IMG/VR virus record: IMGVR_UViG_3300049827_000271
Coordinates: 10,404-74,403 of that record
Origin: a virus
Direction: 5' to 3' (one strand)
Length of the DNA: 64,000 nt
This document shows positions 287 through 62,004 of this stretch, one piece after another (within the stretch, counting starts at the first letter, position 1; each line of letters opens with the position of its first letter). A program made the translations under genes and the position numbers. Below the pieces are notes generated by a model, which did not search any database, was not told where the DNA came from, and saw only the letters and a list, made by a program, of their open reading frames with translations.

Positions 287-407
287 TACCCGCGCCGAGG
301 GTGCGCCCTAACCGTAAGGCTGGGCGGGGTCCATTTTCCAGGCGGTCAACGGTTGGCCGTCCAGGATTTTCTACCCGTGTATTCCCGAACGGCGCGGGTA
401 TCTCTTT
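287..407 (+). ncRNA. candidate structured RNA / regulatory multi-stem element
   Basis: Intergenic; 11-bp closing stem TACCCGCGCCG (287-297) / CGGCGCGGGTA (390-400) encloses a hairpin with a GTAA tetraloop and a second hairpin; followed by TCTCTTT. Confidence 0.4.
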
Positions 408-452
408 AACGCTCCGCATGAGAAATGCGGCACGAAAACCTGAAACAATAAT

Positions 453-809
453 ATGCTAAGTAAACAATCCAAAACCAATAGGCCAACCGCATTTCGCTAC
501 ATGCGGTTGTTAGGGCGACTCGTCAAACTATCTGAAGTCTTGAGACAGTGGGATTATGGATGGTCTGTGCATCTTAGAATAGACAAGGATGGTCCAAAAA
601 TCCATCTGTGCGATTCCGACGACGACTATGAAGGCAACGCCATGCGGCAGATACTTGAAGGCATCCAAAAGGAATGGCGCGACACCTACAGGAATCTGCC
701 AAAACCAAGAGAGGTGAACGACTACGACCGATATGACCTCTGCGAACAACGGAAAAACATCAAGGCGACTCTCGGCGAAGTAAAGCGCCGCCTCGCAAAG
801 TTGCGCTAA
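453..809 (+). CDS. hypothetical phage protein
   Basis: ATG after an A-rich leader, 118 aa, part of a tight operon. Confidence 0.6.
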   Translation: MLSKQSKTNRPTAFRYMRLLGRLVKLSEVLRQWDYGWSVHLRIDKDGPKIHLCDSDDDYEGNAMRQILEGIQKEWRDTYRNLPKPREVNDYDRYDLCEQRKNIKATLGEVKRRLAKLR

Positions 810-8800: not shown

Positions 8801-11800
8801 GACGAGCGCGTTCATTGGCTGTTTCAATTCTGATGAACGCTCCAGTGGGGCGGCTTGTTTGGATTTCAACTCCCGGTCGGACTGCTCCGCCAGCAGGGAG
8901 TCCGCCAAGAGCCTTCTCGATACGCTCGAACTCATTGTATTTTTCGAGGATGGTTTGGGCAAAGTATTCTTTCTTGCCTTTGGTAGAGTGATAGGTTTCA
9001 TAAATATCGTCAGCCACAGATAGCACTACTCGCTCGGCCTCTGCATTGGTGCTTGCGCCTTCTTCTTGCAGTTTCAGGTTGACCAGATTTTTGACGGCGA
9101 AGATGAGGCGCTTAATCTCGCTTGGATCGGTCAACCCTCCAATCTGTTTTGGAAGCTGCTTGCGCTCAACCAAGCCATTCCGTTCGGACGCGAACACGCG
9201 GTCGAACTCCTCTCGGCTATTTCCAGCCGAAGGGCCGTAAGCCTTCATCAGCAGGTCAACCTCTTCCGGCATGGCCGGGCGAGCTTTTGTTCTTCTGAAT
9301 CCGTCGCCAACATCGTAAGCCGGATCATCCAAGACTGTCTCAACGTCAGCGATCTCACCTTCAGCCGAAGCATCCGTAGGCTGCTCAATAGCGCGCGTCA
9401 CCCTCGGCTGTTCCACCGCCTGCCCTTGCGCCTGCAACTCCTCGCGCTTGGCGTCGATCTTCTTGGCGAACTCCATGAACGCCGCCTCACTCTCAAACTT
9501 CTGGAGGAAACCGCGGCGCGGCTCGTCCAGGAGCATGGCGGCCATGAGCGTGTAGCGGTGCTTGCCGTTTTCCGGTCCTCCCTTGACCACGCGCTCGTCA
9601 TTGACAAACAGGTCGCGCCACTTGGAACTGTCCCTTGGGCTGCGCTCGCGCTCCGCCTCATTCTCAGTCGTGGTCTTCTTCCACTTGGCCGGGTCCACGA
9701 TCATCACGTCCGTTGCCTTCGGGTAGGCTCCAGCGACATAAACCGCTCCAGTCTGATTGTCCTTGAACACGGCGGTCATCCGTGTGGTCTTCGCGCTGAC
9801 GCCGCTCGTGCGGGCCATCCCGCCGAAAATCTTCGGCAGGTTAGGCGCGTCATCCTGGAGGTTGACACTGCGGAAGACCGGAACGTTACTGGCCCGCGCC
9901 ACCGCATCCATGATAGGCTGCGCCTGCTGGATCGTCTCATCCATCATCTGCTGGACGTGTTCTACGACTTCCTCCGCCTCCAAGTGATGCTTGTCCACGT
10001 ACGCATCCAGCGCCGCTTGGTCTTCTTTGGACAGCTTGCCGCGCTCGCTCGCGCGCAACAGCCCCTCCATGCGCGAGGCTTCCATGAACTGGTTGCCAAG
10101 CCGGTGCAGCCGTTCGTCGTTGGTGACATCCAGACCTGATTCGTCCGGCTGGCCCCGCTTGCTGAGTTTGCGATGTTTTTTCCAGATCAGGTCGTGCAAG
10201 ACCTGCGTGAAATTCTCACGACTCAACCGGACGGACTGACCGTTCTCATCTAGCGATCCTCGATACCACCCCAGATCGTTGACATCCAATTCTCCGGTGT
10301 CATTGCGGAACCGGCGGGCGTAGATCGGTTTGACGATGTGGTTGAACAACTCCGTCTGAAGCTTGCGGATGGACCATGCGCGCTCGGAGTAGGCTTCACG
10401 GTCTTTCCGGGTGTTCCGCTCGTCCTGCTTGGCGGCCTCGCGCGTGCGCTGGTCGCGTGCGAACCGCTCGGCAAATGCGAGGGACGGAGCAATTCTTTCG
10501 CGGGCCGCTGCGCGCTCCTCCTTGGTCATCTTCTTGGAGAACTCGACTTCGGGATGGACCAGCTTGTGGAGTTCCAAGCTGTCTTGGTAAATCTCTTTCT
10601 GCCGGTTTAGCAAATCGGTATCCCGTTTCACACGCTGTTCCAGCACGGAGCGCAGAACAGTGCGGGACTTGAGTTTCTGATTTTCCTCGCGCGCCAGTTC
10701 AAGCAGCTTTTCCTGCATCTCATGGAACGTGCTGGCGCTGTCCTTGGTTTCCACCGGGATTTCATCGCCGTTCTTTTTGGCTTCGTCGATCCTGGCTTTC
10801 TGCGTCAAGCGGGATTCTCCAAACGCGGCGGAAGCCCGCTTGATTTGTTCCACTTGCAGGCGCAGGCCCGCGCTTGTTCCGCGCGTCTTCTCGTCCAACT
10901 CCTTTTCCAGTTTGGACAGCTTTTGGGCCAGCGACTTCTCCTGTTTCGCATTCTCAGGATTGGTATTCTCGATCTCGGCAATCCGCTCTTGCAGTGCCGC
11001 CACTTCTTTGTCCAACTTCGCTGAAGAGCCTTCGGTCTGAATCTTTATCTTGGCTGCCGGCTCCGCGTGGATGACCCTTGAATCCTCTCCCTTGGCCGCC
11101 ATGTCATCCAAGAGCGACTTGTTGGAAGCAATCGCCTGTTCTTGGGCTTGGATTCCAAGCCCAATGCTTTCATGCCTAAAGCGTTCCAGTGGATCAGAGA
11201 GATCGAGCGCACCGCGCAGCATCAATTCCTGAGCCCGCGCAGTGGCGAATGTCTGCGGCTGAACGACGGCAAGCCGCGCCTCATCTTCTGGCGTTCGGTT
11301 CTTCTTATTGAATAGAAACTCAAATTCCCGCTCCACCGGAAGAGATGCCAGTAACTCCTGTATGCGCGCCCGGTCTTCGGGTGTCGGTTTTTTCTTGCGT
11401 GCCAATGTCCGCAACTCCTCAAGGTTCTCCTGCTCTCGCGTCTTCGGCTCCCAGTTTGTGGCCGCTAAATCTTTCAACTTCTCCCGATAGCCATGACCAA
11501 GCGCATCGCCAGCCACGTTGGCCTTCTGTGATTTTTCCGCCAACTGCTTACTGTCCAGTCCGGTGACGATCTCCGCAACCTTCTGCACAAACGCATCACG
11601 CGCGGTCAGCCAGTGGATCGGAATGTCCTTCTCCTTCAGATAAGTCGTGAACTGCTTGGGCTTGACCAAGTGCAGGTCGCGCTTGCGCGAGGACAGGAAA
11701 TCATGGGCGGCATCGAACACGCTCCGCTGGTAGTCCGGCTCCGGCGGCGGGGCAGGAACGGTCTTGACCCCAGGCGGAGGCAGGTCTGGGCTGGGAGATT

Positions 11801-50276: not shown

Positions 50277-50687
50277 ATGAACACACCACCAAACACTACA
50301 CCAACCATCGAACAAGAACATCACCTGCTGGTAAAACGGCTGGCCAAACCGGGACCGGAGATCGCGCAGGATTTTCTGCGTGATCCAGGCAAGGCCCATC
50401 TCATGCACATGATCGTCGGGATCATGGGAGAGGCCGGGGAATTGCTGGACACAGTAAAGAAGCACTGCATCTACAACAAGCCGCTCGATGTCACCAACAT
50501 CGAAGAAGAATTGGGCGATCTCGAATTCTACACGCGCGGCCTGCGAGATGCGCTGGGGATCGAACGAGACTATACGCTTCGGATGAATATAGCCAAGCTC
50601 AACACGCGCTACCCGGAGGGCTACACAGATCGGGCCGCGCAGAAGCGAGCGGACAAGGAATTTGAAAAGGAGGCGTCCAATGGCTGA
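50277..50687 (+). CDS. MazG-like nucleoside triphosphate pyrophosphohydrolase
   Basis: GIMGEAGELLD, EEELGDLEFY, NIAKLNTRYPEGY. Confidence 0.9.
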   Translation: MNTPPNTTPTIEQEHHLLVKRLAKPGPEIAQDFLRDPGKAHLMHMIVGIMGEAGELLDTVKKHCIYNKPLDVTNIEEELGDLEFYTRGLRDALGIERDYTLRMNIAKLNTRYPEGYTDRAAQKRADKEFEKEASNG

Positions 50688-51348
50688 CCAGAAACGCAAC
50701 CGCACCGTATTCGGACGCATGGAAATCGACTACCCTGCCGGGGCGGTCAGTGTGATCGGGCAGCAATGCGATGGCATCCATGTTCACACCAAGAAGTGTC
50801 AGGACGAAAGGGTTATACCTTTCGACGCCCTGATTGACAGCGATCCGGGCCGCCGCCGGTTCTCGGCGTTGGGCGCGGAGTGGGACTCCAAATTCACCAC
50901 CTCCGGATTTCTGCTCAAGAAAGCGTGGCAGCCGTGGGATCGCGCCAAACTCATCACTTGGCAGATGCTAGCCGAGGCCGCGGTAGGCCAGTTCCATCTG
51001 GATTTTGGAGCAGAGCGCGCCACGGTCACTGCTGTAAGCCCTCCGGAGCCGAGCGTAGAACTTTATCCATTATCAGGCCAAAATCCGCAAGCTCCCTACG
51101 GAAAGATTGAGATTGGAACCTCAGAGCAGATTCCCAACCCAAGACTTCGTGACGGCTGGAGCCTGTGGATTGAAAACAGAACTTGGTGTGTTGCGCCAAA
51201 AATTGATCCTGAGCATTTCGGAAAACACGCATACATGGATGATATGGGAGATTGTCCATGTGGGTGCATAATGAACCAGACCTCCTCAAGCGGCCCGGTC
51301 GATCCGTTCGGCCCGTGCCCGCTCAACCCGCTGGAGGTGACTCCATGA
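50680..51348 (+). CDS. hypothetical protein with a C-terminal Cys cluster
   Basis: SD AAGGAGG; CPCGC...GPCP.NP. Confidence 0.6.
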   Translation: MADQKRNRTVFGRMEIDYPAGAVSVIGQQCDGIHVHTKKCQDERVIPFDALIDSDPGRRRFSALGAEWDSKFTTSGFLLKKAWQPWDRAKLITWQMLAEAAVGQFHLDFGAERATVTAVSPPEPSVELYPLSGQNPQAPYGKIEIGTSEQIPNPRLRDGWSLWIENRTWCVAPKIDPEHFGKHAYMDDMGDCPCGCIMNQTSSSGPVDPFGPCPLNPLEVTP

Positions 51349-51608
51349 GTTGGCTGAAAGACGATCCGCGCCCGCTCCTATATGCGGTGGATGGAGACGG
51401 GCAGAAACTGATGCACCATAAGAAACCCCGCTATTTCAGGTTGACCGGAAACCAGTCTAGCACCGGAGGCGGAACACCTGAGAATTGTCCAGTGGAAGTG
51501 GAGTATGTGGATGGAAGCAATGGGTGGATTCACCCATCATCTATTCGAGTGCTCGTTGAAGCGACCCGCGTAGGCTCGCCTGCACCGACGGTTAGGACTA
51601 CGGTATGA
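51345..51608 (+). CDS. hypothetical protein
   Basis: SD GGAGG, ATGA overlaps. Confidence 0.6.
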   Translation: MSWLKDDPRPLLYAVDGDGQKLMHHKKPRYFRLTGNQSSTGGGTPENCPVEVEYVDGSNGWIHPSSIRVLVEATRVGSPAPTVRTTV

Positions 51609-51826
51609 AATCAAAAATAACACAAAAAGACGGACTGAAACTCTCAACGGCTCTCGACGCGCTCGCGCTCGCGCTGGCCGGTCACAAGCACAAATGGACT
51701 GCAAAACAACGGTCTGCTTACGAGCGTGCCGTGTCGGTGCTCGGCAAAACCTTCGCAGGTGAAGTGCCGCCGCCACGGCGGCGCAATACTCAGGAACACC
51801 GGAGACTTTATTCCGAACGACCATGA
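51605..51826 (+). CDS. hypothetical protein
   Basis: ATGA overlaps; 3' end lies in a degenerate attC-like site. Confidence 0.55.
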   Translation: MKSKITQKDGLKLSTALDALALALAGHKHKWTAKQRSAYERAVSVLGKTFAGEVPPPRRRNTQEHRRLYSERP

Positions 51827-51896
51827 CAACCGAATCACCGAAACCGTCCGACGAAGCCAAAGCGGGGGCACTACTGCCTCCAGCGATGGGTTCAAC
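51744..51896 (-). other. degenerate attC-like site
   Basis: Good left arm GTTGAAC-CCATC-GCTGGAGGCAGTAGTGCC; eroded right arm GGCACTTCACCTGC...GTTTTGC. Confidence 0.45.
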
Positions 51897-52038
51897 CAAC
51901 TACAACTCACGCCAAGAGACAAACGAACACATCCTGCGCGTGCGCGAACTCGGTTGGTCGGCCGCCCAAGCTCAGCGACGGCAGCCGACAGCGCCGCCGC
52001 GAGCGCAAAAGAAAGGAAAAAATCACGATGATCTCTGA
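51823..52038 (+). CDS. cassette-borne hypothetical protein
   Basis: Both termini are encoded by attC-like arms. Confidence 0.5.
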   Translation: MTTESPKPSDEAKAGALLPPAMGSTNYNSRQETNEHILRVRELGWSAAQAQRRQPTAPPRAQKKGKNHDDL

Positions 52039-52080
52039 ACGTAAAGCGTGGCTGCCGTTCGCTGAAGTGCATAGTTCGGC
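51957..52080 (-). other. attC-like site with a mutated R' core
   Basis: GCCGAAC-TATGC-ACT(T)CAGCGA(A)CGGCAGCC ... GGCTGCCGTCGCTGAGC-TTGGGC-GGCCGAC. Confidence 0.75.
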
Positions 52081-52309
52081 GACCTGCTGCCTGTGCAACT
52101 GGACAAACGTAAACCTCTTAAACCTAGGAGAACCCGGAGCACCGCGATGGACGTGCCACGGCTGCTGCAAGCGAATGCTCGATACACTGGAGAAACTCCG
52201 AGAAGGAGACTTCGCTGGCACGCCAATCAATCGCGGCAGTTCTGCGATGCTGCTCATAGATGAAACGCTGTCGTCTAACAAAGAACAGGCCGCACTGCGT
52301 ACACCATGA
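52028..52309 (+). CDS. cassette-borne small Zn-finger-like protein
   Basis: CCLC...CHGC; SD AAAGGA and ATG lie inside the attC loop. Confidence 0.6.
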   Translation: MISERKAWLPFAEVHSSATCCLCNWTNVNLLNLGEPGAPRWTCHGCCKRMLDTLEKLREGDFAGTPINRGSSAMLLIDETLSSNKEQAALRTP

Positions 52310-52536
52310 ACAGGACACTTGGACAGATTCGCCGGAAAAGATTCTCCCTAATGCGGGCCGCCAAGGAGCGGAAACGTCTGGCCAGCCAGCCTACGGAACG
52401 GGAGCCTAGAATAGAAAAGTTTCATCGGATGGAAGTGACAGTAAAAGACCGTCTCACAGGAGAATCCGGTTCCGCGGAGATCAAGAGTGCCCGCCATGCG
52501 GCCAGACTGTTTCAGTGCTTTTTCGGGAGCATTTAG
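52306..52536 (+). CDS. basic hypothetical protein
   Basis: ATGA overlap. Confidence 0.55.
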   Translation: MNRTLGQIRRKRFSLMRAAKERKRLASQPTEREPRIEKFHRMEVTVKDRLTGESGSAEIKSARHAARLFQCFFGSI

Positions 52537-52549
52537 CGCAATATCCATC

Positions 52550-52777
52550 ATGCCCGTCAACACACTGAAATCCATCTCTAAATGGCAGGCGGACTACCGC
52601 CGCTACCTGTCAGACGTGCGACGCCAGCAACCGGCGCCGATCATGCCCGCCGAACCCGCGCTGGAAACCCCAATGGAGCGCGCCGTGCTCGCGGAGGCCA
52701 AGCGACAGGAAGACTTGGCGCACGCCAGGGCGCTGGATCGACAGCAGGCAAACCCGTACTGGAAGAAACCGAGTTGA
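52550..52777 (+). CDS. hypothetical protein
   Basis: 75 aa, co-oriented. Confidence 0.5.
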   Translation: MPVNTLKSISKWQADYRRYLSDVRRQQPAPIMPAEPALETPMERAVLAEAKRQEDLAHARALDRQQANPYWKKPS

Positions 52778-52970
52778 CATTTTTTCCGGCCAGCCGATGT
52801 TGGCCGGAAATCTCCCGCGAGCGGCGCGGGACTGCGGCCCGTGACGGGGCCGGTAAAACCGTGGTAAGCATGAACATTGATCCATCCAGTCTGCCCGTGG
52901 CGATCCCGCCCATCTTCGGCCCCGCCGGAGAGCCACGGCCCGTCACCGTCGCGGGCAGACTGGGTGGATT
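52774..52970 (+). promoter_or_regulatory. highly structured leader / candidate ncRNA upstream of ssb
   Basis: TTGACA followed by three hairpins and a ~22-bp stem (52880-52901 / 52948-52969) with G-U pairs. Confidence 0.55.
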
Positions 52971-52990
52971 TTCTATCACAAACTACACTT

Positions 52991-53428
52991 ATGGCATCAT
53001 TCAATAAAGTAATTTTAGCCGGAAATCTGTGCCGCGACCCGGAGGTCCGCTACACTCCCAAGGGAACGGCGGTCTGCAAATTCTCCATCGCGGTCAACCG
53101 CAAGTGGAAGAACGAGGCTGGAGAACAGAAGGAGGACGTGACCTTTGTGGACATCGACTCGTTTGGTAAGCAGGCGGAAACCGTGGCGCAATGGTTCAAG
53201 AAGGGGAATCCAATTCTGGTGGAGGGCCGGCTCAAGCTGGATCAGTGGGAGGACAAGAATACAAAGGAAAAGCGGAGCAAGCTTGGTGTGGTGTTGGAAG
53301 GGTTTTCGTTCTTGGGCGGAAAGTCAGATGCGGCCCCCAAGGAATCACAAGCCTCCAATCCGGAGGCAAGCGCTGGACAGGCGGCGTCTCCGCCTCCAGC
53401 CGGAGATGATTCGGACATTCCGTTTTGA
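52991..53428 (+). CDS. ssb: single-stranded DNA-binding protein
   Basis: NKVILAGNLCRDPEVRYTP, VEGRL, acidic DSDIPF tail. Confidence 0.97.
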   Translation: MASFNKVILAGNLCRDPEVRYTPKGTAVCKFSIAVNRKWKNEAGEQKEDVTFVDIDSFGKQAETVAQWFKKGNPILVEGRLKLDQWEDKNTKEKRSKLGVVLEGFSFLGGKSDAAPKESQASNPEASAGQAASPPPAGDDSDIPF

Positions 53429-53440
53429 CCCGCTTCCGGT

Positions 53441-55465
53441 ATGACTGACATTATCTCCAGCTTCCGCCAAGCACTCCATGCCTCTGGCTTGGAGTATGAC
53501 GGCCCGATCCACGCGGACGGGACCATTCACCGATTCTCCAATAACGGCGACGAAGAGCGGAATAGCTGGTATCTACTGCATCCAGACGGAATTCCATCCG
53601 GAGCGTTTGGATGCTGGAAGCGGTCGATCAGCCAGACTTGGTGTTCCAAGTCCAAGAACGAGATGTCCCGCGAGGAGATGTCTGCGTTCTCCCGCCTCTG
53701 CGCGGAGGCCCGGCGCATGGCCGACGAGAAACAGGCGGCCATGCACGCGCTGGCCCAGGAGACGGCGAAGGAATTGTTCGAGCGGCTCCCCGGCGCTACA
53801 GGCGATCATCCGTATCTGCGGCGCAAGGGGGTAAAAGCACACGGAGACATCAAGGTGGATGAGCGCGGAAACCTGGTCATCCCCCTCCGGGACGAGCATG
53901 GTGATGTCTGGTCTGTCCAGACCATTTCACCAGATGGGGAAAAACGCTACATGTCAGGCGGACGCAAGCGCGGCTGCATGTTCTCCATCGCCAAGGCGGA
54001 GATGGGACCGCTCATCATCGCGGAAGGCTACGCAACGGGAGCCACATTGCACGAGGCCACAGGATACTCCGTAACCTGCGCGATGGACTCGCATGGATTG
54101 GAGGCCGCCGCCGTGGCCGCCCGAACCGCCTACCCGGATCGCCGGATCGTCATCGCCGCCGATTGCGACAAGTGGGACAAAGATGGGAAACTCCGCAAAG
54201 ACCCAAGCGGAAAGCTGCTCAATCCAGGCAAAGACGCGGCGGATAAGGCAGCGCGGGCGGCGGGCGCAACCGTGGCCTATCACGATTTTAAGGAGCCGAA
54301 CACAGGCTCGGACTTCAACGATTTGGCCAAACTCGCCTCTTTGCGAGAGGTCAAGCGGATGATCGACCGTGCGATCCCGGAGTGCAGTAAACGTATAACA
54401 ATCGAAGAACTTATGAATCATGTAAAAAATGAAGACCCAACCAACTTACTAGGCGACCGATGGCTGTGCCAGGGCGGATCATGTCTGATCGTCGGGCCAA
54501 CCCATGTTGGAAAGTCATCACTGGCCCTGCAAATGGCCGTCTTCTGGGCATTGGGCATGTCGTTTTACGGGATAAAGCCGGCGCGACCGCTGCGGAGCGT
54601 GTTCATCCAGGCGGAAAATGATACCGGGGACATAGCTGAGATGATCCAAGGCATCCTTCTTGGGGGAGGACTGATCCGGGATGACTTGGCGGCCAACGAA
54701 GAGATTATGAGGATGCTGGACGCAAACCTGTTCATCGTCCGGGACCAGACTCATGTGGGAGAGGCGTTCGCCGTTTTCATCAGGGAGTTGATCTCTTTTT
54801 ACAAGCCGGACCTGTGCTGGGGCGACCCGCTCATGTCCTACTACGGGGATGACATCAACAACCAGCAGGCGGCTACGAAGTTCTGCCGAGAGTTGATCAA
54901 TCCAATTGCCGAGCGCACCGGGGTCACATTCATCTTCCTCCACCACACGGGCAAGCCGATGAAGGACGCGGCCAAGACCACCAAGGGCTGGGCCTCGGGA
55001 GATTACGCCTACATGGGGATGGGGAGTTCCGAGTTCTCCAATTGGGCTCGGGCCATCATCTGCGTGGTCCGCACCGCCGAGGACGAGTTCAAGTGTATTT
55101 TCGCCAAGCGCGGCTGGCGGGCGGGGGCGAAAGCCGACGACGGAACGGTCACGAACGAACTGCTGCTCGCCCACTCGGCGGAGCACATTCACTGGAAACA
55201 GATTCCGCAACCCCCAGAGAAAGAGGAGGAGGAGGAGGGTGCGTGCGCCGCGTTCGCCAAGCGGCTGATCGGAGAGAACCTGACGGCCACCCAAGTCGTC
55301 CACCGGGCGTCCAAGGATATGAAGCGGGGCATCCGCACCGTCTGGAAGCTGTGGGGCCAGGGCCAGGGCGCGCTCGGAAAGATGTTCCGACAAGACCCGG
55401 CGACCAAACTCTATACCCCGCTCAACGCGGCCATGCCGGTTGCGCGGGGGTGCAAGGATGACTGA
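53441..55465 (+). CDS. Toprim primase fused to a RepA/AAA_25-type helicase
   Basis: HPYLRRKG, AEGYATG, AADCD, DFND; Walker A GPTHVGKS, DPL, HHTGK. Confidence 0.92.
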   Translation: MTDIISSFRQALHASGLEYDGPIHADGTIHRFSNNGDEERNSWYLLHPDGIPSGAFGCWKRSISQTWCSKSKNEMSREEMSAFSRLCAEARRMADEKQAAMHALAQETAKELFERLPGATGDHPYLRRKGVKAHGDIKVDERGNLVIPLRDEHGDVWSVQTISPDGEKRYMSGGRKRGCMFSIAKAEMGPLIIAEGYATGATLHEATGYSVTCAMDSHGLEAAAVAARTAYPDRRIVIAADCDKWDKDGKLRKDPSGKLLNPGKDAADKAARAAGATVAYHDFKEPNTGSDFNDLAKLASLREVKRMIDRAIPECSKRITIEELMNHVKNEDPTNLLGDRWLCQGGSCLIVGPTHVGKSSLALQMAVFWALGMSFYGIKPARPLRSVFIQAENDTGDIAEMIQGILLGGGLIRDDLAANEEIMRMLDANLFIVRDQTHVGEAFAVFIRELISFYKPDLCWGDPLMSYYGDDINNQQAATKFCRELINPIAERTGVTFIFLHHTGKPMKDAAKTTKGWASGDYAYMGMGSSEFSNWARAIICVVRTAEDEFKCIFAKRGWRAGAKADDGTVTNELLLAHSAEHIHWKQIPQPPEKEEEEEGACAAFAKRLIGENLTATQVVHRASKDMKRGIRTVWKLWGQGQGALGKMFRQDPATKLYTPLNAAMPVARGCKDD

Positions 55466-55721
55466 CCGTGCGCCACGTCTATCCATTAACCGACGAATTA
55501 TGCTAGACCTAGAACAAATCAAACTCATCGGCTCCATCAACGCGCTGCGCGAGCAGATCGAATCCCGGCTGTGGATCGTGCGCAACAACTGCTTCAACGA
55601 CTACGTGGACGGCCCGGCATACATCTGCTTGGGCAAGTGCATCGAAAGAGCCCGCTCCGAGCTTAGGGATGTTGAAGCCCTGCTCCAAGAGATGAATCGG
55701 CTGGACGGAAGGAGCCAGTAG
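55458..55721 (+). CDS. hypothetical coiled-coil protein
   Basis: Overlaps the primase stop. Confidence 0.5.
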   Translation: MTDRAPRLSINRRIMLDLEQIKLIGSINALREQIESRLWIVRNNCFNDYVDGPAYICLGKCIERARSELRDVEALLQEMNRLDGRSQ

Positions 55722-55722
55722 T

Positions 55723-56190
55723 ATGTGCGACCATAATTCTCCTGCTGAACCCATCTCCGCGGCCTGCCCGGCGCCCTCTGACAGCACCGCTGGAGACTTC
55801 AAACTCCCCCTGGCAAACGCGCCGTGTTTCTTGGCCGGGGTGAATCAGACCGCGCCGCTCCGTCCGGGGGACGAAGAGAGTAGTGGGGCACACTCCACTC
55901 TTGCCCCCGGCGGCGCGGCGCAAGCTGAAAGAATCGAATGGATTGACTTGCTCATCGTTCCGCAGGACGTGGACCGCGTGCGTATTTCCGAGATGATCCG
56001 TGAAGTTGGAGGAGTGCTCTCATGGCATGATGAAGACATGCGCGCCGGATTGCCGCTCAATGCTGCGGTGGGCGCTTTTCCAGGAAGAGCCGATGATGTT
56101 CGCAGCACGATGCTGAAGCTACGCGGACACAACGACCCAAGCTCTGCCACATGGCGGGGCGGAAAGGACTCCAAATGCAAAGTGAACTGA
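55723..56190 (+). CDS. hypothetical protein whose C-terminus is encoded by an attC-like arm
   Basis: Ends ...GHN-DPSSATWRGGKDSKCKVN inside the 56127-56227 site. Confidence 0.5.
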   Translation: MCDHNSPAEPISAACPAPSDSTAGDFKLPLANAPCFLAGVNQTAPLRPGDEESSGAHSTLAPGGAAQAERIEWIDLLIVPQDVDRVRISEMIREVGGVLSWHDEDMRAGLPLNAAVGAFPGRADDVRSTMLKLRGHNDPSSATWRGGKDSKCKVN

Positions 56191-56227
56191 ATCGCCCCGC
56201 CATGTCGGCAGCAGCGCATGGTTTGGC
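56127..56227 (-). other. attC-like recombination site
   Basis: GCCAAAC-CATGC-GCT(G)CTGCC(G)ACATGGCGGGGCG ... CGCCCCGCCATGTGGCAGAGC-TTGGGTC-GTTGTGT. Confidence 0.85.
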
Positions 56228-56588
56228 AAAAAACCCACATGACTCAATGACGGCATGGGATAGAAGCTGGAAACCTCACCATCTTCCAATGTGGGCGAGA
56301 AAATCTATCCGACTGGATGCGATAAAAAAAGACAACTGGCGTGCCTATCCAGGATGGCCAGTCAACAACCATGCCGAGGCACACCTTCCGCACGAACTGT
56401 TTGACCATTGGGGCAGCGTAAAGCGCGGTAAAACACGCGCACTCATAGCGCAACCCTATGGCGAACATGATGCACTCGCGAAATCATTCGCATCCGAACT
56501 CGGATGGTCAGTCAAATCTTTCACGCCCGGCCCGTGGAATGATGGAACGTGGTGCTACGAGTTTTTGCCGAACAATGCGCAATCCTAA
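56175..56588 (+). CDS. cassette-borne hypothetical protein
   Basis: SD AAAGGA and ATG in the attC loop; FDHWG...QPY...PW motif; ends LPN-NAQS. Confidence 0.7.
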   Translation: MQSELNRPAMSAAAHGLAKNPHDSMTAWDRSWKPHHLPMWARKSIRLDAIKKDNWRAYPGWPVNNHAEAHLPHELFDHWGSVKRGKTRALIAQPYGEHDALAKSFASELGWSVKSFTPGPWNDGTWCYEFLPNNAQS

Positions 56589-56600
56589 ACCGAGTACGCC

Positions 56601-57104
56601 ATGCACAAGATTGTTTCCCGCCACATCCTTTGGCCATGCCTCTTGCTTCTAACGGCGTGCCACCATCCTGTTGGTCATCCCGCTTCCCCTCCGCTGCCTG
56701 CGCGTTCCGTCCCGCGATCCGGTCTGCTTCCATTGCGGCCCTGGACCAACATCATCCAGGAGACGCTGGTGCCCGCCGAGTTACGATGGAGCCAGCAGGC
56801 GGCTCCGGCTTTCATCAACGGCCAGTGCGTGGAAAGTAATTCATGTCCAATCATGCTCACAGTAGGCCGTCTCCAGTGGTTCTCGGCCAGCACGGAGGGA
56901 GGCGAGGAGACGAACCGGCTGGCGGTCCTGGCCTGGCCTGATCCCGCGTCTCCGGACACCGCGGTTCTGAAGGTCACAACCGCTGTGCGCCGAACTGCCG
57001 CTGGGAGTGAAATCATTTCCCGGACGACCAACGCCGGGACGGACAGGATAACCCTGTTGTCAGCAACCAATCCAACTGGATTTTTTTTAATACTTAGACC
57101 GTAA
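56601..57104 (+). CDS. putative lipoprotein
   Basis: LLLLTA-C lipobox; TN motifs; ends ATNPTGFF. Confidence 0.55.
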   Translation: MHKIVSRHILWPCLLLLTACHHPVGHPASPPLPARSVPRSGLLPLRPWTNIIQETLVPAELRWSQQAAPAFINGQCVESNSCPIMLTVGRLQWFSASTEGGEETNRLAVLAWPDPASPDTAVLKVTTAVRRTAAGSEIISRTTNAGTDRITLLSATNPTGFFLILRP

Positions 57105-57105
57105 T

Positions 57106-57474
57106 ATGAAAATAGAACAACACATACAACTAGACCGATGGATCGCCGTGAATATCAACAAATGGCCGGAGCCGGAGTGGGTTTACGATGATGGGATTGA
57201 CTACAAGCACGGGACGCCGGGCAACAGCGTGCTGTGCCGCTATGCGCCGACCGAAAACCGCAGCGAGGCCCTGCATGTGCTGGAGAAGTGCGCAGAGCGA
57301 ATGAGCAAGCTGCATGATGATGATCGCTATATCGCCATTGGCTATGAGCGTCTGACTGGCAATTTTATTGTATGCGAGTCAGACGTGGCCAACGGCATTA
57401 GCGTGGATGGGGATACGCTTCCACTCGCCATCTGCCTGTTCGCCCGCCGGCTCTTTGAGAAAGGCGCGGAATGA
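57106..57474 (+). CDS. phage ABA-sandwich (BC1872-like) protein
   Basis: LDRWIA...W...PTENRSEALHVLEK...TLPLAICLFA. Confidence 0.65.
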   Translation: MKIEQHIQLDRWIAVNINKWPEPEWVYDDGIDYKHGTPGNSVLCRYAPTENRSEALHVLEKCAERMSKLHDDDRYIAIGYERLTGNFIVCESDVANGISVDGDTLPLAICLFARRLFEKGAE

Positions 57475-57848
57475 ACACACCACAAACCGATCAGTGTGTC
57501 TCCGAAATACAGGCGCAGGTCCAAGCGCTGGAGAATGCCGGAACGACCGTGTGCATTGATGACGCAGAAAATATGTTGAAGGGTTACTTCGATAAGATCA
57601 TCGCGCTTTCCCGCCGGCTGGAGCAGGAGCTTTCCGCCGAGAAAGCGCGGGCGGAGGAGGCAGAGGAGGCGTTGGCGGAGTTGAAAGACGCGGCAGGGGC
57701 AATTTTCTCCGACTTCGTGGATGACGCTCTCGACCAGCCTTTTTGTGAAGTCCAAATGAACGTGCAGCTTGGCAAGGTGAGAAGGGTGATGCGCGCGATT
57801 TCAGCCGCCCGCTCCTCCGGCTTGACAAACGAAAAACCATCAGCGTGA
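57471..57848 (+). CDS. hypothetical coiled-coil protein
   Basis: MNTPQTD...RRLEQEL pattern common in small phage proteins. Confidence 0.6.
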   Translation: MNTPQTDQCVSEIQAQVQALENAGTTVCIDDAENMLKGYFDKIIALSRRLEQELSAEKARAEEAEEALAELKDAAGAIFSDFVDDALDQPFCEVQMNVQLGKVRRVMRAISAARSSGLTNEKPSA

Positions 57849-57994
57849 TTACCCCATGACGCAAAAAATCATCAACTGGCAGCGGCGCTACACCATCGTC
57901 AAATACCTGGCCTACACGATGGCCGCCGGCTCCCTCGTCTCCCTCTCCTACATCCTGAAGGCCATCGCCATCCACCTCGAAACCTGCCACTGAC

Positions 57995-58192
57995 ATGGCA
58001 TCCCACAGCCGCAAAAGAAAACCCTGCGATCCCAACCGCTGCTGCTTCTCGTTCCGGGGTTATGAGTGCCAGGAGAGCCCGGCTTGGTTCAGCACCAGCA
58101 ACGGACACACCACTTACTGGTGTGACGGACACAAGAAGGCTTTGGAACAGTACTGCTGCCCCGCCTCGTGGCAGAGATTGAGAGGCCCATGA
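57995..58192 (+). CDS. small Cys/His-rich protein
   Basis: RCC...C...WCDGH. Confidence 0.5.
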   Translation: MASHSRKRKPCDPNRCCFSFRGYECQESPAWFSTSNGHTTYWCDGHKKALEQYCCPASWQRLRGP

Positions 58193-58542
58193 ATATCCAT
58201 CTCCATCCCAACAAACGCCGCGGTGGCTGGTTCGTCGTCGCCTGCATCGTGGTCGTCGCCCTGGCCGTGGTCGTCACCATCACCTACTGCATTTACGACG
58301 CGGCCCAGATACCGCCCCGCCCGCCCCCGGACGAGGAGAACATCCGGTCGGTCATGTTCCGGGTGTCCGGCCTTGTCAACTCCACGAATGGCGCCGCCCG
58401 GATCACCGCACCGGTCGCTCGGGTCGGGAGGTTTGTACTCCAGTTCTCCACCAACTTGACGGACTGGCAGGACCGGGAGGCCATGCTGTTCGACGACCTG
58501 ACCAACCGCTGCGGTTTTTATCGCTGGAAACTTGAGCAATGA
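58189..58542 (+). CDS. membrane-anchored protein with an STNLTDW...FYR C-terminal domain
   Basis: N-terminal TM helix; LQFSTNLTDW...GFYR. Confidence 0.65.
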   Translation: MNIHLHPNKRRGGWFVVACIVVVALAVVVTITYCIYDAAQIPPRPPPDEENIRSVMFRVSGLVNSTNGAARITAPVARVGRFVLQFSTNLTDWQDREAMLFDDLTNRCGFYRWKLEQ

Positions 58543-58754
58543 AACCACAACATCACCTGCTACCCCTCCGGCCAGACTGCGCCCGGCTGGCCTCCCGCTG
58601 CCACCCGGACGCGGCCACGCACGTCCTGGTCCACGCCGATGACACGCTGGAAATGCGGTGCGCCCAATGCCAGAGGGCGTTCGCCTGGCTTCGGTTCAGC
58701 CCTCCACTTCAACCGGGCCGTCCGCGCGGTGCCGGAGCCAATGAGTCCGGATAG
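58539..58754 (+). CDS. small Zn-binding protein
   Basis: SRCHP...RCAQC; ATGA overlap. Confidence 0.55.
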   Translation: MKPQHHLLPLRPDCARLASRCHPDAATHVLVHADDTLEMRCAQCQRAFAWLRFSPPLQPGRPRGAGANESG

Positions 58755-58871
58755 CGACCGGATGAACTGTGAGGTAACGAGCAAATCACAGCGACGATTA
58801 ACAAATGGAAGAAAGCCCACTCCGCCGTATGACGGTGTGAACTCGTCAATTTCCGCTCCCGCCATTCAACG

Positions 58872-59312
58872 ATGTCAAACTGGATAACCTCCCCGGACAA
58901 CCGGCCCTCCCATTCCGCCCGCACTCCATCTGAGCGCGACCGGCTGGTCCACGAGGCCAAGGAGAAGCTGGTCCTCCTCAAAATGCAAAGGGAATCCCTT
59001 GACTTGGAGATCAACCGGAAGACCGTGCTGCTGGAGGAACTGCTGTTGATGAAAGACGAGTCCAAGGTGGCGCTGGTGGGCGGGCAGCTTCACGACCAGA
59101 CCGTGGCCGGGATGGTGATCAAGGCGCTGGACGCTCATGGCCAGGATGAGTTCACGGCCCGAGAGATCAAGAACCGGGCGATCCGCATGTTCCCCTTGGA
59201 GGAGCGCCGGATCAAGCTGGGGTTCTACGCCGCGCTCGCCCAACTGTCCAAGAAGGGGATGGTCCGGCGACGCTGCCGGAATCAGTGGAGCCGTATTCCA
59301 GTGGAGGTTTGA
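58872..59312 (+). CDS. coiled-coil plus winged-helix protein
   Basis: FTAREI...YAALAQLSKKGMV...W. Confidence 0.55.
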   Translation: MSNWITSPDNRPSHSARTPSERDRLVHEAKEKLVLLKMQRESLDLEINRKTVLLEELLLMKDESKVALVGGQLHDQTVAGMVIKALDAHGQDEFTAREIKNRAIRMFPLEERRIKLGFYAALAQLSKKGMVRRRCRNQWSRIPVEV

Positions 59313-59319
59313 TTGCGTA

Positions 59320-59346
59320 TGAAACGACTTGCGCGGGGTCGTTTCA
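59320..59346. terminator. hairpin between convergent gene blocks
   Basis: TGAAACGAC / GTCGTTTCA 9-bp stem with AT-rich flanks. Confidence 0.55.
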
Positions 59347-59371
59347 ATATACGAGCTAAAGTTGCCGAATC

Positions 59372-60037
59372 CTAGTTGGGCCACTTGGCGCACGTCGCAG
59401 CCAATTCGAGCAGGTAGTGCGCAAACGCGGGAGGTGTGGCGTTTGCCTCACGCTTTGAGAGTGTCGGTTTGTTTGCGGCCTTTCCGCGCTGGTCGTGGAA
59501 GCCGACTTGGTGCGAGCCGGTTGGCCGCTCCCATCGAGGTTGAAGTGGCGCATCCGTGCCGGAGCAGTAGAGCCACGTCCGCTTGTTCGCTCGATGGCCG
59601 TAGGCCGATTGCCAGACTTCGCAGACCAATCCTTGCTTCCATCGCGTTCATCCAGTTGCCGGACGCGGCAGGCCGTGCGCTGGCCATGCGTAGGTTTCTG
59701 CTGGATGTTCCAGCACACCGCCGCAGCGGTTCACGGTATCAAGCGCGAAGCGGAAGCATCCGCCATCGTTGCCCGGCTTGTTGTGTTCGCCGCCCCATCG
59801 CAGGTAGTTTATCTTCGCCATCTTTCCCCACAGTTGGCAGGGAGGATGCGCCACGACCGGCGCGTTGCCGGTGTAGGTCATCGCGTCACGCTCTGCATCG
59901 TAGCAGTCGCAGCCTAGCGACTTGTAGAGAGAGTCTTTCATCACAAACAACACGACGTGGCCCAACCATGCGCTGCTGCCAATGAGTGCCGCGTCGGGCA
60001 TCACTGTCGATTGAACGTCTTGGGTCGCGGCACTCAT
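59372..60037 (-). pseudogene. cassette-borne C5-cytosine methyltransferase-like gene with an in-frame TGA
   Basis: VAHPPC and VLEHP motifs; track ORFs 59648-60076 and 59372-59629 share a frame and are split by one TGA (59648-59650). Confidence 0.65.
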
Positions 60038-60058
60038 GGCAGAGCTTGGTCGTTCGGT
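59960..60058 (+). other. attC-like recombination site 1
   Basis: GCCCAAC-CATGC-GCT(G)CTGCC(A)ATGAGTGCCGCG ... CGCGGCACTCATGGCAGAGC-TTGGTC-GTTCGGT. Confidence 0.88.
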
Positions 60059-60312
60059 GGACCACACTTGTCGCATCGGACTTCGCCGTTATAGCGGAGG
60101 ATGTGCTCAAAGGAGTGCGTCTCCTTTTCTTCCGGCGTCACCCAGATTGTCCACGCTTCGCCATTGCACAGTTTGCAGTTCAGAGGGCCGTATAGTTCTC
60201 CAAATGTCACCGGGACATGCGTGCTTGAGCGTGGTTGCATCAACGAGGCCACCGAACAACCGGATGCAGACAACCCCGCCATTGCGCCTTGTTCGAGTTC
60301 AAGAGTCTTCAT
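60034..60312 (-). CDS. cassette-borne Zn-ribbon-like protein
   Basis: CKLC...CDKC; starts in attC2 and stops in attC1. Confidence 0.6.
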   Translation of the reverse strand: MKTLELEQGAMAGLSASGCSVASLMQPRSSTHVPVTFGELYGPLNCKLCNGEAWTIWVTPEEKETHSFEHILRYNGEVRCDKCGPPNDQALP

Positions 60313-60342
60313 GGGGGGGGTGTCTGATCCGGAGCGTTAGGC
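60251..60342 (+). other. attC-like recombination site 2
   Basis: ACCGAAC-AACCG-GAT(G)CAGACA(A)CCCC ... GGGGTGTCTGATC-CGGAGC-GTTAGGC. Confidence 0.88.
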
Positions 60343-60636
60343 ATCTAGGCCATCTTTCTTCATGGCGGCATCAACCGCATCGCGGTATGTGTCGCCCCAG
60401 CACGTTGTCCCGTCGCTGGCCATCACGAGGAATGGCGCTTCCTTCACGTTCTCGCGCTGGTGGGTTTCTTCGAGCCAGCACAGGTAGTCGAAGCAGTCAG
60501 CTTTATACATCATCTCCTGCGTCATCATCGCGCACAGGCGGGTTGCTAGTTGGTCGTCGGAGAGCTTTGACGCCGCCGAGCCACTGCATGGAGCAGAACC
60601 CGGCGGAGCGTCAGGCTGTTGAGAGTCACTTGGCAT
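60337..60636 (-). CDS. cassette-borne hypothetical protein
   Basis: SD AAAGGA and ATG in the attC3 loop; C-terminal TYRDAVDAAM motif; TAA stop lies in the attC2 core. Confidence 0.65.
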   Translation of the reverse strand: MPSDSQQPDAPPGSAPCSGSAASKLSDDQLATRLCAMMTQEMMYKADCFDYLCWLEETHQRENVKEAPFLVMASDGTTCWGDTYRDAVDAAMKKDGLDA

Positions 60637-60686
60637 TGGTATCCTTTCGGGTTGTCGCGCCGGGTCGCTCATGCAGGCCGTTAGGA
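60575..60686 (+). other. attC-like recombination site 3
   Basis: GCCGAGC-CACTG-CAT(G)GAGC(A)GA(A)CCCGGCG ... CGCCGGGTCGCTCATG-CAGGCC-GTTAGGA. Confidence 0.8.
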
Positions 60687-61195
60687 GAATAGAGCGCGCT
60701 CACCTTGCTTGGTGGGTGGACGCCTTTACCGAAGTCCAGCGCGAGAGCGACGAGCCACGGCAGATTGCCGATGGTCTTTTCTTCGCCGCCCGCTATCGCC
60801 TTCGATGACACCACTTCGATTTGTTCGGACTCCATTGATGTCAGTTTGTGCGGCTCGCCGATGGTGTAGAAGAACTCGACCTCAAAACTTCCGCCGTCGT
60901 TATTTGTTCCTGACATTGAGCAGAAGTGCGTCCAGTCGGAAGGCCACAGTCCGGCTTCTTCGCCGAACTCTCGGCACATGGCGTTGATTGCTTCTTCGCC
61001 GGCTTCGACCTTGCCGCCGATGCCGTTGAGCAGCCCGGCTTGCCACGCTGGTTTGTTTTTGCGGATTAACGCGACGTTCGACATGGCCACATCGAACATG
61101 AAGCCGACCACATATTTGGTTTGGCCCGATTCTCCTAGCAAGTCGCTGGAGGCAACGGCGGGTTTGCGTTGCTCGATTGTCTTTGGTGCATTCAT
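60626..61195 (-). CDS. cassette-borne NUDIX hydrolase
   Basis: Nudix box GGKVEAGEEAINAMCREFGEEAGL. Confidence 0.92.
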   Translation of the reverse strand: MNAPKTIEQRKPAVASSDLLGESGQTKYVVGFMFDVAMSNVALIRKNKPAWQAGLLNGIGGKVEAGEEAINAMCREFGEEAGLWPSDWTHFCSMSGTNNDGGSFEVEFFYTIGEPHKLTSMESEQIEVVSSKAIAGGEEKTIGNLPWLVALALDFGKGVHPPSKVSALYSPNGLHERPGATTRKDTNAK

Positions 61196-61238
61196 ACGTT
61201 TTGGTTGTTCTCGCCGTGCCTCAGCTTAATCGTCAGAT
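61133..61238 (+). other. attC-like recombination site 4
   Basis: TCCTAGC-AAGTC-GCT(G)GAGGCA(A)CGGCG ... CGCCGTGCCTCAGC-TTAATC-GTCAGAT. Confidence 0.8.
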
Positions 61239-61294
61239 ACAGGTTCATTGACCCCTCCCCTCTTCTACGTCACGCGCAGTCGTCACTGGTTCAT

Positions 61295-61600
61295 TCATGG
61301 TTTCCTTTCCGCTCCACCGTTTCCGCCGGAGCGGGCAGGGGGAGCTTTATCGTTTGGCTTACTCCGCCGCCATCCAGCGGGGCCGCTTGATCCCCCCCTA
61401 TTTTTAGACCGATGCAGGAACGCCTCACACACTGTCAGCCGGATATAAACTTGCTCGCAGTCGAGGCATATTGCCCGCCTCCACACGCCTGGCGCGTCTG
61501 TGTATTTGTAGCTAGAACAGACCGGGCAACGTCCGTCCGTGGAAGCCAGCCTGCCCGACGGTTCCCGTCTGGCTGGAGCGGGTGAAGGTTTATGGCTCAT
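61295..61600 (-). CDS. small Zn-ribbon protein
   Basis: CPVC...CLDC; ends PN-DKAPP in an attC right-arm remnant. Confidence 0.5.
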   Translation of the reverse strand: MSHKPSPAPARREPSGRLASTDGRCPVCSSYKYTDAPGVWRRAICLDCEQVYIRLTVCEAFLHRSKNRGGSSGPAGWRRSKPNDKAPPARSGGNGGAERKP

Positions 61601-62004
61601 CGTGCGGCTCCTTTCGCCGTGTCCCCAGCCGACCTGCTCCGCTCCCGTCTCTGCGCCTCCCGCTCGATCTTATCCAGCGAGTCGCAGTAGTCGCGGACGA
61701 ACTCGGACATGTATTTCCCAGCCCTATCCACCTTCCGGTTAAGAGCGCGGACCTTCTGTGTCAGGCTGTCGTTGCAATCCGGGCAGGACCATAACTGCTC
61801 TGCGTGCGGGGCATTCCCCTGTGAGGCCCAGTAGGCAGGGCGCCTTGGCTGAATGCTCACGAGCGATTTATTCAGGCATTGGCAGCAGGATTCCCTGCCG
61901 CACACCACGCAGGTTGCTGGCTGGCAGGCCATGTCCTCGGACCCGCCGCAGAAGTCGCAGACGTGAACCTCTCGTGTCTCGGTGATGGTTTGAGTGGATT
62001 TCAT
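61597..62004 (-). CDS. multi-CxxC Zn-finger protein
   Basis: CDFC, CVVC, CCQC, CPDC; ATGA overlaps. Confidence 0.65.
   Translation of the reverse strand: MKSTQTITETREVHVCDFCGGSEDMACQPATCVVCGRESCCQCLNKSLVSIQPRRPAYWASQGNAPHAEQLWSCPDCNDSLTQKVRALNRKVDRAGKYMSEFVRDYCDSLDKIEREAQRRERSRSAGDTAKGAAR

Follow-up and report, generated by a model that had tools for sequence, protein, structure and literature searches.

The phage genome and the cassette region

The window analysed here, a stretch of 64,000 nucleotides of phage DNA, forms part of a virus record of 74,403 bases that is 97% complete. Between 44 and 56 kb, its + strand carries a phage recombination and replication module, which encodes RecT, a PDDEXK nuclease, an RNase T-like exonuclease and a VRR-NUC protein, together with MazG, SSB and a primase-helicase, and which encloses the cassette region, a run of small overlapping + strand ORFs lying between MazG and SSB:

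51605-51826, + strand: upstream phage gene, phrog_29001, with the PHROG match on residues 12-47
51823-52038, + strand: ORF of 71 aa, with a leader encoded by the site, a body of 20 codons and a tail that runs through the attC of cassette 1
52028-52309, + strand: cargo gene of cassette 1, 93 aa, Cys/His-rich, antisense to its attC, with 16 homologues

The integron integrase profile TIGR02249 had no match anywhere in the 74-kb record, and the sole tyrosine recombinase of the record (1475-2641) gave weak Xer-type matches only. Neither attI nor intI lies near the phage attC sites described below, which do not therefore constitute a complete integron. At gathering thresholds, Rfam returned no family in the window, and a tRNA search found none. 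A blastn search of the phage collection with 51300-52800 gave no match, and no phage relatives were found in viral contigs when the primase was used as the query.

A family of attC sites in the window

Members of one site family are present in the window at 52.0 kb, at 56.1 kb and, as a group of four, at 59.9-61.2 kb. The sites at 59960-60058 (+) and 56127-56227 (-) have about 20 nt in common at each end and differ in their inner stems, and alignment of the sites on one strand gave a common plan. On the 5' side, a 7-nt box ending in AAC or AGC is followed by a 5-nt spacer, three base pairs and an unpaired base; the inner part consists of about five pairs, a second unpaired base, a stem and a variable loop; and, on the 3' side, the return arm leads through a 6-7-nt spacer to a GTT box (GTC in the 61.2-kb site). 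Both unpaired bases fall on the same arm across the 56.1-kb and 59.9-61.2-kb sites, and the 60.6-kb site has one additional unpaired A. The common hairpin plan is that of an integron attC site, which is characterized by its R and L boxes, by a central spacer that stays unpaired, by extrahelical bases close to L'' and by a terminal structure that varies (PMC5027507). Three of the five hairpins folded from the 56-kb and 59-61-kb regions were far better than shuffled sequences on at least one strand, with z values ranging from -2.4 to -5.0 across both strands.

Two covariance models were used to search for further members. Model R1 was built from the five other sites of the window and was used to scan the whole window with filters off; model R2 was built only from 94 sites in bacterial arrays, one of which adjoins an intI gene. 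The 52.0-kb site was in neither training set, but the members of R2 were collected with R1, so that R2 retains some dependence on the window; both models derive, directly or indirectly, from the other sites of the window. Noise in the window starts at 11.8 bits for R1 and reaches at most 11.9 bits for R2, and exactly six window sites stand above the R2 noise:

56125-56229, - strand: attC site, R2 57.6 bits
59958-60060, + strand: attC site, R2 57.3 bits
60249-60344, + strand: attC site, R2 52.5 bits
61131-61240, + strand: attC site, R2 46.0 bits
51955-52082, - strand: attC site, R2 29.5 bits, E about 4.5e-6
60573-60688, + strand: attC site, R2 29.3 bits

A site-like hairpin at 402-517 (-), in an AT-rich gap that precedes the tyrosine integrase gene by about 1 kb, scored 23.4 bits with R1 but was absent from the R2 matches, and was left unconfirmed as a member of the family.

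Cassettes cut at G|TT classically show complementarity between the start of the cassette and the R'' flank of its attC, and, within the intact array at 59375-61240, the cassette starts are complementary to their own attC R'' flanks at 11/12, 10/12, 6/12 and 10/12 positions. The first cassette of this 59-61-kb array holds a phrog_12600 homologue (59372-60076, - strand) in two ORFs, 59648-60076 and 59372-59629, which match positions 6-97 and 106-194 of the 203-position profile; the split could be the result of a frameshift, a stop or a programmed shift.

The attC site at 52.0 kb

The initial annotation, made from the letters of the window, had placed an attC with its R' box mutated to GGCCGAC at 51957-52080 on the - strand. 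The motifs are as it described them, with the + strand reading GTCGGCC at 51957-51963 and GTTCGGC at 52074-52080, and the site could be delineated by R1, R2, folding, the arm test and the family alignment:

51957-52080, - strand: attC of cassette 1, 124 nt
52074-52080, - strand: R'' box, GCCGAAC
52069-52073, - strand: 5-nt spacer
52050-52068, - strand: L'' and stem, with unpaired T 52065 and unpaired A 52059
51987-52049, - strand: loop, 63 nt
51970-51986, - strand: 3' arm
51964-51969, - strand: 6-nt spacer
51957-51963, - strand: R' box, GGCCGAC, with GTT lost

The relaxed-threshold covariance search that had been suggested as a check recovered the site with both models. With R1, run without filters, 51955-52082 (-) was the best match outside the training set, at 23.8 bits (E about 1e-3), and the R2 score of 29.5 bits likewise compares with noise of no more than 11.9 bits; the opposite strand scored 9.2 bits with R1 and was absent from the R2 list. 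The shuffled controls, which had also been proposed, supported the site as well: its fold of -27 kcal/mol corresponds to z = -2.0, with 7 of 200 shuffles equally good, and the complementarity of its arms gave p = 0.011 against dinucleotide shuffles, compared with p = 0.001 for the 56.1-kb site.

Set against the published description of attC sites (PMC5027507), the R'' box GCCGAAC has the AAC of RYYYAAC and is off at one of the four degenerate positions, and the hairpin has unpaired spacers, two extrahelical bases on the L'' arm and a variable loop. The R2 score of 29.5 bits ties the site to attC sites from integrase-linked arrays. Its R' box does not conform to GTTRRRY and lacks the GTT/AAC triplet, and the site is therefore filed as a degenerate, rather than a functional, member. 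Relative to the bacterial consensus, the first L'' base is changed, the first unpaired base is T instead of G and the spacer is 1 nt shorter. The 52.0-kb site belongs to the integron attC family.

Boundaries and cargo of cassette 1

At its other end, cassette 1 is bounded by a lone core:

52273-52279, - strand: lone core GTTAGAC, placed by sequence, by the homologue alignment and by the end of the DNA homology with metagenome locus L010
51957-52278, - strand: cassette 1, 322 nt, comprising a body that is wholly coding on the + strand and its own attC

The core reads GTCTAAC on the + strand, as had been noted, its AAC (52277-52279) being an in-frame Asn codon of the ORF at 52028-52309, and the crossover falls between 52279 and 52278. 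As a 7-mer the core is worthless, GTTRRRY occurring 43 and 58 times per strand against about 51 expected, and, although the 8/10 end pairing reported for it was correctly counted, 0.14 occurrences per site are expected by chance, so that the pairing is not significant. The boundary is instead fixed by the homologues of the cargo protein (n = 16, 50-87% identity), which have a Cys/His-rich core in common and among which all 15 that reach the AAC column have Asn there. Pairwise identity between the homologues is 81% in the core, 55% over the ten columns up to the Asn and 11% after it (21% at the N-termini), and this drop confirms, at the level of the alignment, that the predicted core is a true cassette boundary.

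Alignment of the DNA with that of L010 extends from the R' box through the gene to the AAC, both flanks being unrelated, and the differences between the two genes lie mostly at third codon positions of the + frame, which fits coding on the + strand. The breaks in homology at R' and the AAC mark out 51957-52278 as a discrete cassette, that is, a unit between two crossovers that has other neighbours elsewhere (L010, L011 and the 15 protein homologues).

The R'' box encodes the conserved Gly-Ser-Ala of the cargo protein, and the last ten codons of the gene lie beyond the cassette, in neighbouring DNA. The protein has no match in Pfam or PHROG. Its structure model (pLDDT 71.6) gave weak matches to zinc-finger-like folds (Foldseek against the PDB, E > 1), and searches of the protein atlas and with Foldseek for a function returned only a weak zinc-finger-like resemblance; as modelled, the cargo is probably a small zinc-binding protein. 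No relative of the gene was found in 185,579 species genomes, and eleven metagenome loci (L010-L020) encode homologues. R1 family sites, always antisense, lie at the ends of the homologue genes in five of these (L010, L011, L016, L017 and L018), and L012-L015, L019 and L020 gave no R1 site match at that threshold. L010 is an otherwise canonical array whose Cys-rich cassette is cassette 1 of the phage with its GTT core intact. The array in this contig (Ga0208371_1011092, positions 1-1721) has four sites, with three cassettes sense to attC and the Cys-rich one antisense.

Relationship to bacterial integrons

In a scan of one genome per prokaryote species, the motif pair of the family matched at least 120 loci in bacteria, and many of these are arrays. 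Verrucomicrobiota (Limisphaerales and Pedosphaera), Planctomycetota, Cyanobacteria and integron-rich gamma-proteobacteria account for many of the matches, often with several on a contig. The 94 sites found with R1 are spread across 35 bacterial loci, in one-directional arrays, and three of the five such genomes tested encode an IntI above the TIGR02249 cut-off. In one Limisphaerales MAG a divergent intI, split into two ORFs, lies about 540 nt from the start of the array. The two ORFs overlap (899560-900027 and 900005-900493, within about 898-900.5 kb of CBDIPT010000001.1; L139/L144/L147), and the split reflects either a frameshift or a long-read assembly error.

The longest ORF between neighbouring sites is sense to attC in 120 intervals of the bacterial arrays and antisense in 17; the same count in the window gave none sense and two antisense.

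A probable decayed site and a putative second cassette

A second, eroded attC had been proposed at 51744-51896 on the - strand and, with it, an array of two cassettes:

51744-51896, - strand: decayed attC, with its 5' half recognisable and its 3' half barely so
51890-51896, - strand: R'' GTTGAAC (+ strand GTTCAAC), next to a 5-nt spacer and an L'' with unpaired G 51881 and A 51875
51746-51773, - strand: arm of the 3' half, with GTTTTGC at 51744-51750; weak
51750-51956, - strand: putative cassette 2, comprising a body of about 60 nt (51897-51956) and the decayed attC

This proposal was only partly confirmed. No R1 or R2 match spans 51744-51896 at E values up to 10, the only model match inside it being 51844-51898 at 7.3 bits, and the shuffle control went against the fold (z = -0.6, with 45 of 200 shuffles equally good), so that the element has neither the model match nor the better-than-shuffle hairpin by which an attC would be recognized. 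Its parts fared better. In a position matrix for the 5' half, built from bacterial sites, 51873-51898 (-) ranked sixth among about 128,000 positions, directly after the true sites and with its unpaired bases in register. It is thus the best non-site match in the window, and the probability that chance would place it on the same strand and within 360 nt on the downstream side of the 52.0-kb site is about 0.003. An ungapped matrix for the 3' half gave no information, since the spacer length varies between 6 and 7 nt; the arm at 51746-51773 did, in the shuffle control, show complementarity at p = 0.024 against dinucleotide shuffles. The end pairing claimed for this site was also borne out, the start of cassette 2, GGCCGACCAAC, agreeing with the complement of the 51.8-kb R'' flank at 8/11 positions, with p about 0.0016 at fixed positions.

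The neighbouring ORFs were compared with their relatives. The first 22 or so residues of ORF 51823-52038, which are encoded by the site, recur with 96-100% identity on two otherwise unrelated proteins; homologues were found for this leader only, and the ORF is possibly no functional gene. The conserved part of the upstream gene, 51605-51826, stops at about residue 47 (nt 51745), at the proposed R' of the decayed site. Most of its 56 representatives match to residue 46-50 and many end there, and residues 48-73 of the phage product are read from the decayed site. The leader peptide had no relative among the viral contigs, and blastn and tblastn searches of all the loci retrieved gave nothing, whether the query was the 51.8-kb site or either of the two upstream ORFs.

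We regard 51744-51896 as a probable, heavily decayed attC, and the array as probably one of two cassettes. By the definition of a CALIN (at least two attC sites within 4 kb and no integrase), only one site of the 52-kb array passes the model, and 4,043 nt separate it from the next confirmed site on the same strand, 56125-56229, a distance that borders on the usual limit of 4 kb (cited in PMC8352920).

It is unlikely that the locus holds one cassette only, with 51744-51896 being ordinary phage sequence and GGCCGAC the original junction at a non-GTT secondary target. The lack of a model match, the fold no better than shuffles and a cassette 2 'body' of only 60 nt or so would all be explained in this way, and IntI1 inserts at very loose genomic targets with the consensus GWT (bioRxiv 10.1101/2022.09.11.507474). 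However, GGC is off this consensus; the best non-site match of the window lies where the next site would be expected (chance about 0.003), with the unpaired bases in register; the end pairing (p = 0.0016) and the arm (p = 0.024) add to this; and the site-encoded leader recurs on other proteins.

Loss of the core and mobility of cassette 1

The initial annotation further held that these were older cassettes being fixed by core mutation, and an alignment of orthologous loci had been suggested to see whether relatives retain GTT. At the position of GGCCGAC in the window, L010 reads GTTAGGC and L011 reads GTTCGTA, so that both cassettes keep GTT at R'. In a third relative, the protein P0019, Pro-Pro-Asn occurs close to the C-terminus, at the place expected for such a junction, and at the protein level this suggests an intact AAC. 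The loss of GTT with respect to L010 and L011 stands, whereas the greater age of the cassettes and their fixation by core mutation are conjecture.

With IntI1, changes of single triplet positions in one partner are tolerated, and changing T2T3 to GG in attC alone cut recombination about 160-fold without abolishing it (PMC2811028). As this is a drop and not an abolition, the 52.0-kb site may fairly be called 'crippled', not 'dead'. The other flank of cassette 1 is a bare core without a folded site, and on this side the cassette appears, from the analysis of its flanks, to be trapped. Given the GGC core, the degraded next site and the bare-core flank, cassette 1 has very probably lost the ability to be excised and become an ordinary gene of the phage. 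Contigs from two sequencing runs, one of them the probable source of the phage, contained no excision joints and no variants, rare variants being invisible in contigs; as to habitat, the runs give only their 'freshwater' labels. A second public run, from a freshwater metagenome of another study, contains a few contigs identical to parts of 50500-62000, these being 151-185 nt in length and of depth 2-3.

Gene orientation and the loop of the site

The phage genes are antisense to attC, unlike those of the bacterial arrays. At 52 and 56 kb the sites are on the - strand and the genes on the +, and at 59-61 kb, where NUDIX and phrog_12600 matches mark coding on the - strand, the sites are on the +; the two regions mirror one another, and the earlier observation that site orientation follows transcription, not genome strand, was correct. 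The loop of the 52.0-kb site carries translation signals on the gene strand:

51987-52049, + strand: attC loop, with AAGGA at 52013-52017, ATG at 52028-52030 and TGA at 52036-52038

This ATG starts the ORF 52028-52309 and the TGA ends the ORF 51823-52038. An upstream stop and a candidate downstream start lie inside the hairpin at 52.0, 56.1 and 60.0 kb and in the decayed site at 51.8 kb; a clear AAGGA is present in the loop at 52.0 and 56.1 kb, none is evident at 51.8 kb and, at 60.0 kb, the ATG is in the stem and has no clear ribosome-binding site.

With stops and candidate starts inside four of the hairpins and AAGGA in the loop of two, and with the 52.0-kb stem preserved where the R' box is not, the hairpins might be kept mainly for a role as RNA, hiding or exposing the ribosome-binding site and start and coupling small genes, in which case their integron origin would be incidental and the loss of GTT without consequence. 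The decayed 51.8-kb site argues against this, because its stem has not been kept, and as the main explanation we hold such a role to be improbable; on the origin of the sites it does not conflict with the cassette-array interpretation that we prefer.

Origin of the array

We favour, at a probability of about 0.78, the interpretation that the 52-kb locus is the remnant of an integron-type cassette array (CALIN-like) in the early + operon, in which cassette 1 was inserted, is read antisense and has probably been locked in. The family membership of the 52.0-kb site, both boundaries of the cassette, the loss of GTT against the orthologues and the antisense coding are established points on which it builds. 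Cassette 1 would combine its small Cys-rich gene with an attC of a kind known from the chromosomal integrons of Verrucomicrobiota and Planctomycetota-type bacteria, and a host integron integrase, of a kind that the phage itself lacks, may have inserted it at a bare GTT target. The loop of the attC would supply the ribosome-binding site and ATG of the cargo gene; reading would then proceed through the R'' box and the whole body, cross the crossover AAC as Asn and stop in the neighbouring DNA. With start signals in the loop and antisense reading, the folded site would also serve as the junction of two cistrons. In a later state, which would be the one seen, R' has GGC for GTT, the next site is presumed to have degraded to its 5' half and the other flank is a bare core. 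Removal of 51750-52278 in silico gave no tidy junction of the flanking genes, which counts against this interpretation, and a single simple insertion is therefore not demonstrated.

That chance core-like motifs and chance inverted repeats in densely packed small phage genes would account for the locus is highly improbable: GTTRRRY does occur at random frequency, 8/10 pairing arises about 0.14 times per site and every proposed site overlaps ORFs, but the model scores are 12-18 bits above the window noise on one strand only, the site ends share sequence identity with the bacterial attC consensus and the homology breakpoints fall at the predicted crossover points, so that chance is refuted for the 52.0-kb site and the lone core and is left for the 3' half of the 51.8-kb site. 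The original identification of integron-type cassette remnants, as opposed to chance motifs, is upheld by the site family, the R1 and R2 scores and the breakpoints.

Beyond the cassette-array interpretation of this locus, we put forward, tentatively and as something rather less than an even chance, that reverse-coded integron cassettes form a special class employed by this phage and its relatives. In such cassettes the bottom strand of attC, which is the recombinogenic one, would have the sense of the mRNA, and the variable loop would carry a stop codon, a ribosome-binding site and a start codon; with the signals borne by the loop, any order of cassettes would yield a translationally coupled operon. 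Small early genes, perhaps with anti-defence roles, would be exchanged by means of a borrowed host integron integrase, and the 52-kb array would be a domesticated module of this sort. The antisense cassettes that form a minority in bacteria, such as that of L010, might then represent a gene pool shared by phage and bacterium.

Comparison with known systems

Clusters of attC sites without an integrase (CALINs) have been published in phage genomes, and phage attCs were recombined by IntI1 in an assay (PMC9892861); in that work (Qi et al. 2023) same-direction arrays are typical and divergent sites are mentioned in passing. The window resembles those CALINs in having attC sites and cassettes, and no intI, in a phage genome, and differs in a host type that is Verrucomicrobiota/Planctomycetota-like, in the three separate insertions found within a single phage, in cargo genes that are all antisense and start in the attC loop, and in the degraded state of the 52-kb array. 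With the chromosomal integrons (Ghaly et al. 2021, PMC8352920; arrays of Limisphaerales, Pedosphaera and Planctomycetota MAGs) the window has the attC family and its geometry in common, and its Cys-rich cassette is found also in the canonical L010; however, the sense/antisense count of 120/17 in the chromosomal arrays contrasts with 0/2 in the window, where there is no nearby intI or attI. Insertion outside att sites, by attC x attG recombination, has been described, such cassettes being expressed from resident promoters (Loot et al., bioRxiv 10.1101/2022.09.11.507474). In a similar way, the window array begins at a bare GTT core without a folded partner, which is what insertion into a genomic, non-att target should leave behind, although that work was experimental, in E. 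coli and with IntI1, whereas the route in the window is inferred and its target is a phage operon. New here are the host-type attC family, the three insertions in one phage, the antisense coding with signals in the attC loop and the documented loss of a core against intact orthologues.

In resistance integrons, neighbouring cassettes become joined as a single immobile unit when an attC is lost or truncated. The loss in the window differs from this, in that it consists of substitutions in the R' triplet, the hairpin is kept and the joined unit is read antisense.

Integron cassettes are best known as a means of gene stockpiling by bacteria, and recent work ties them to anti-phage defence. Here the traffic would run in reverse, with a phage of a poorly studied host group carrying host-type cassettes at three early-operon places. 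The 52-kb array would be a cassette caught in the course of becoming a fixed phage gene, its hairpin kept, its triplet lost and the site of its neighbour crumbled, and the window thus illustrates how cassettes of bacteria may enter a phage and end up there as fixed, ordinary genes. Antisense coding with start and stop in the loop is not the textbook arrangement and, if general, would define a class of cassettes built for reading from the other strand. The attC type may also offer a practical means of guessing the hosts of phages.

Other features of the window

A single ORF of 3,629 codons occupies 2898-13787 on the - strand, which is unusually long given the size of the phage. Close to the cassette region, at 52880-52969, there is a 23-nt inverted repeat, 87% complementary and with its arms 44 nt apart, which sits in the ssb ORF as annotated, ahead of the SSB domain, which begins at residue 42.
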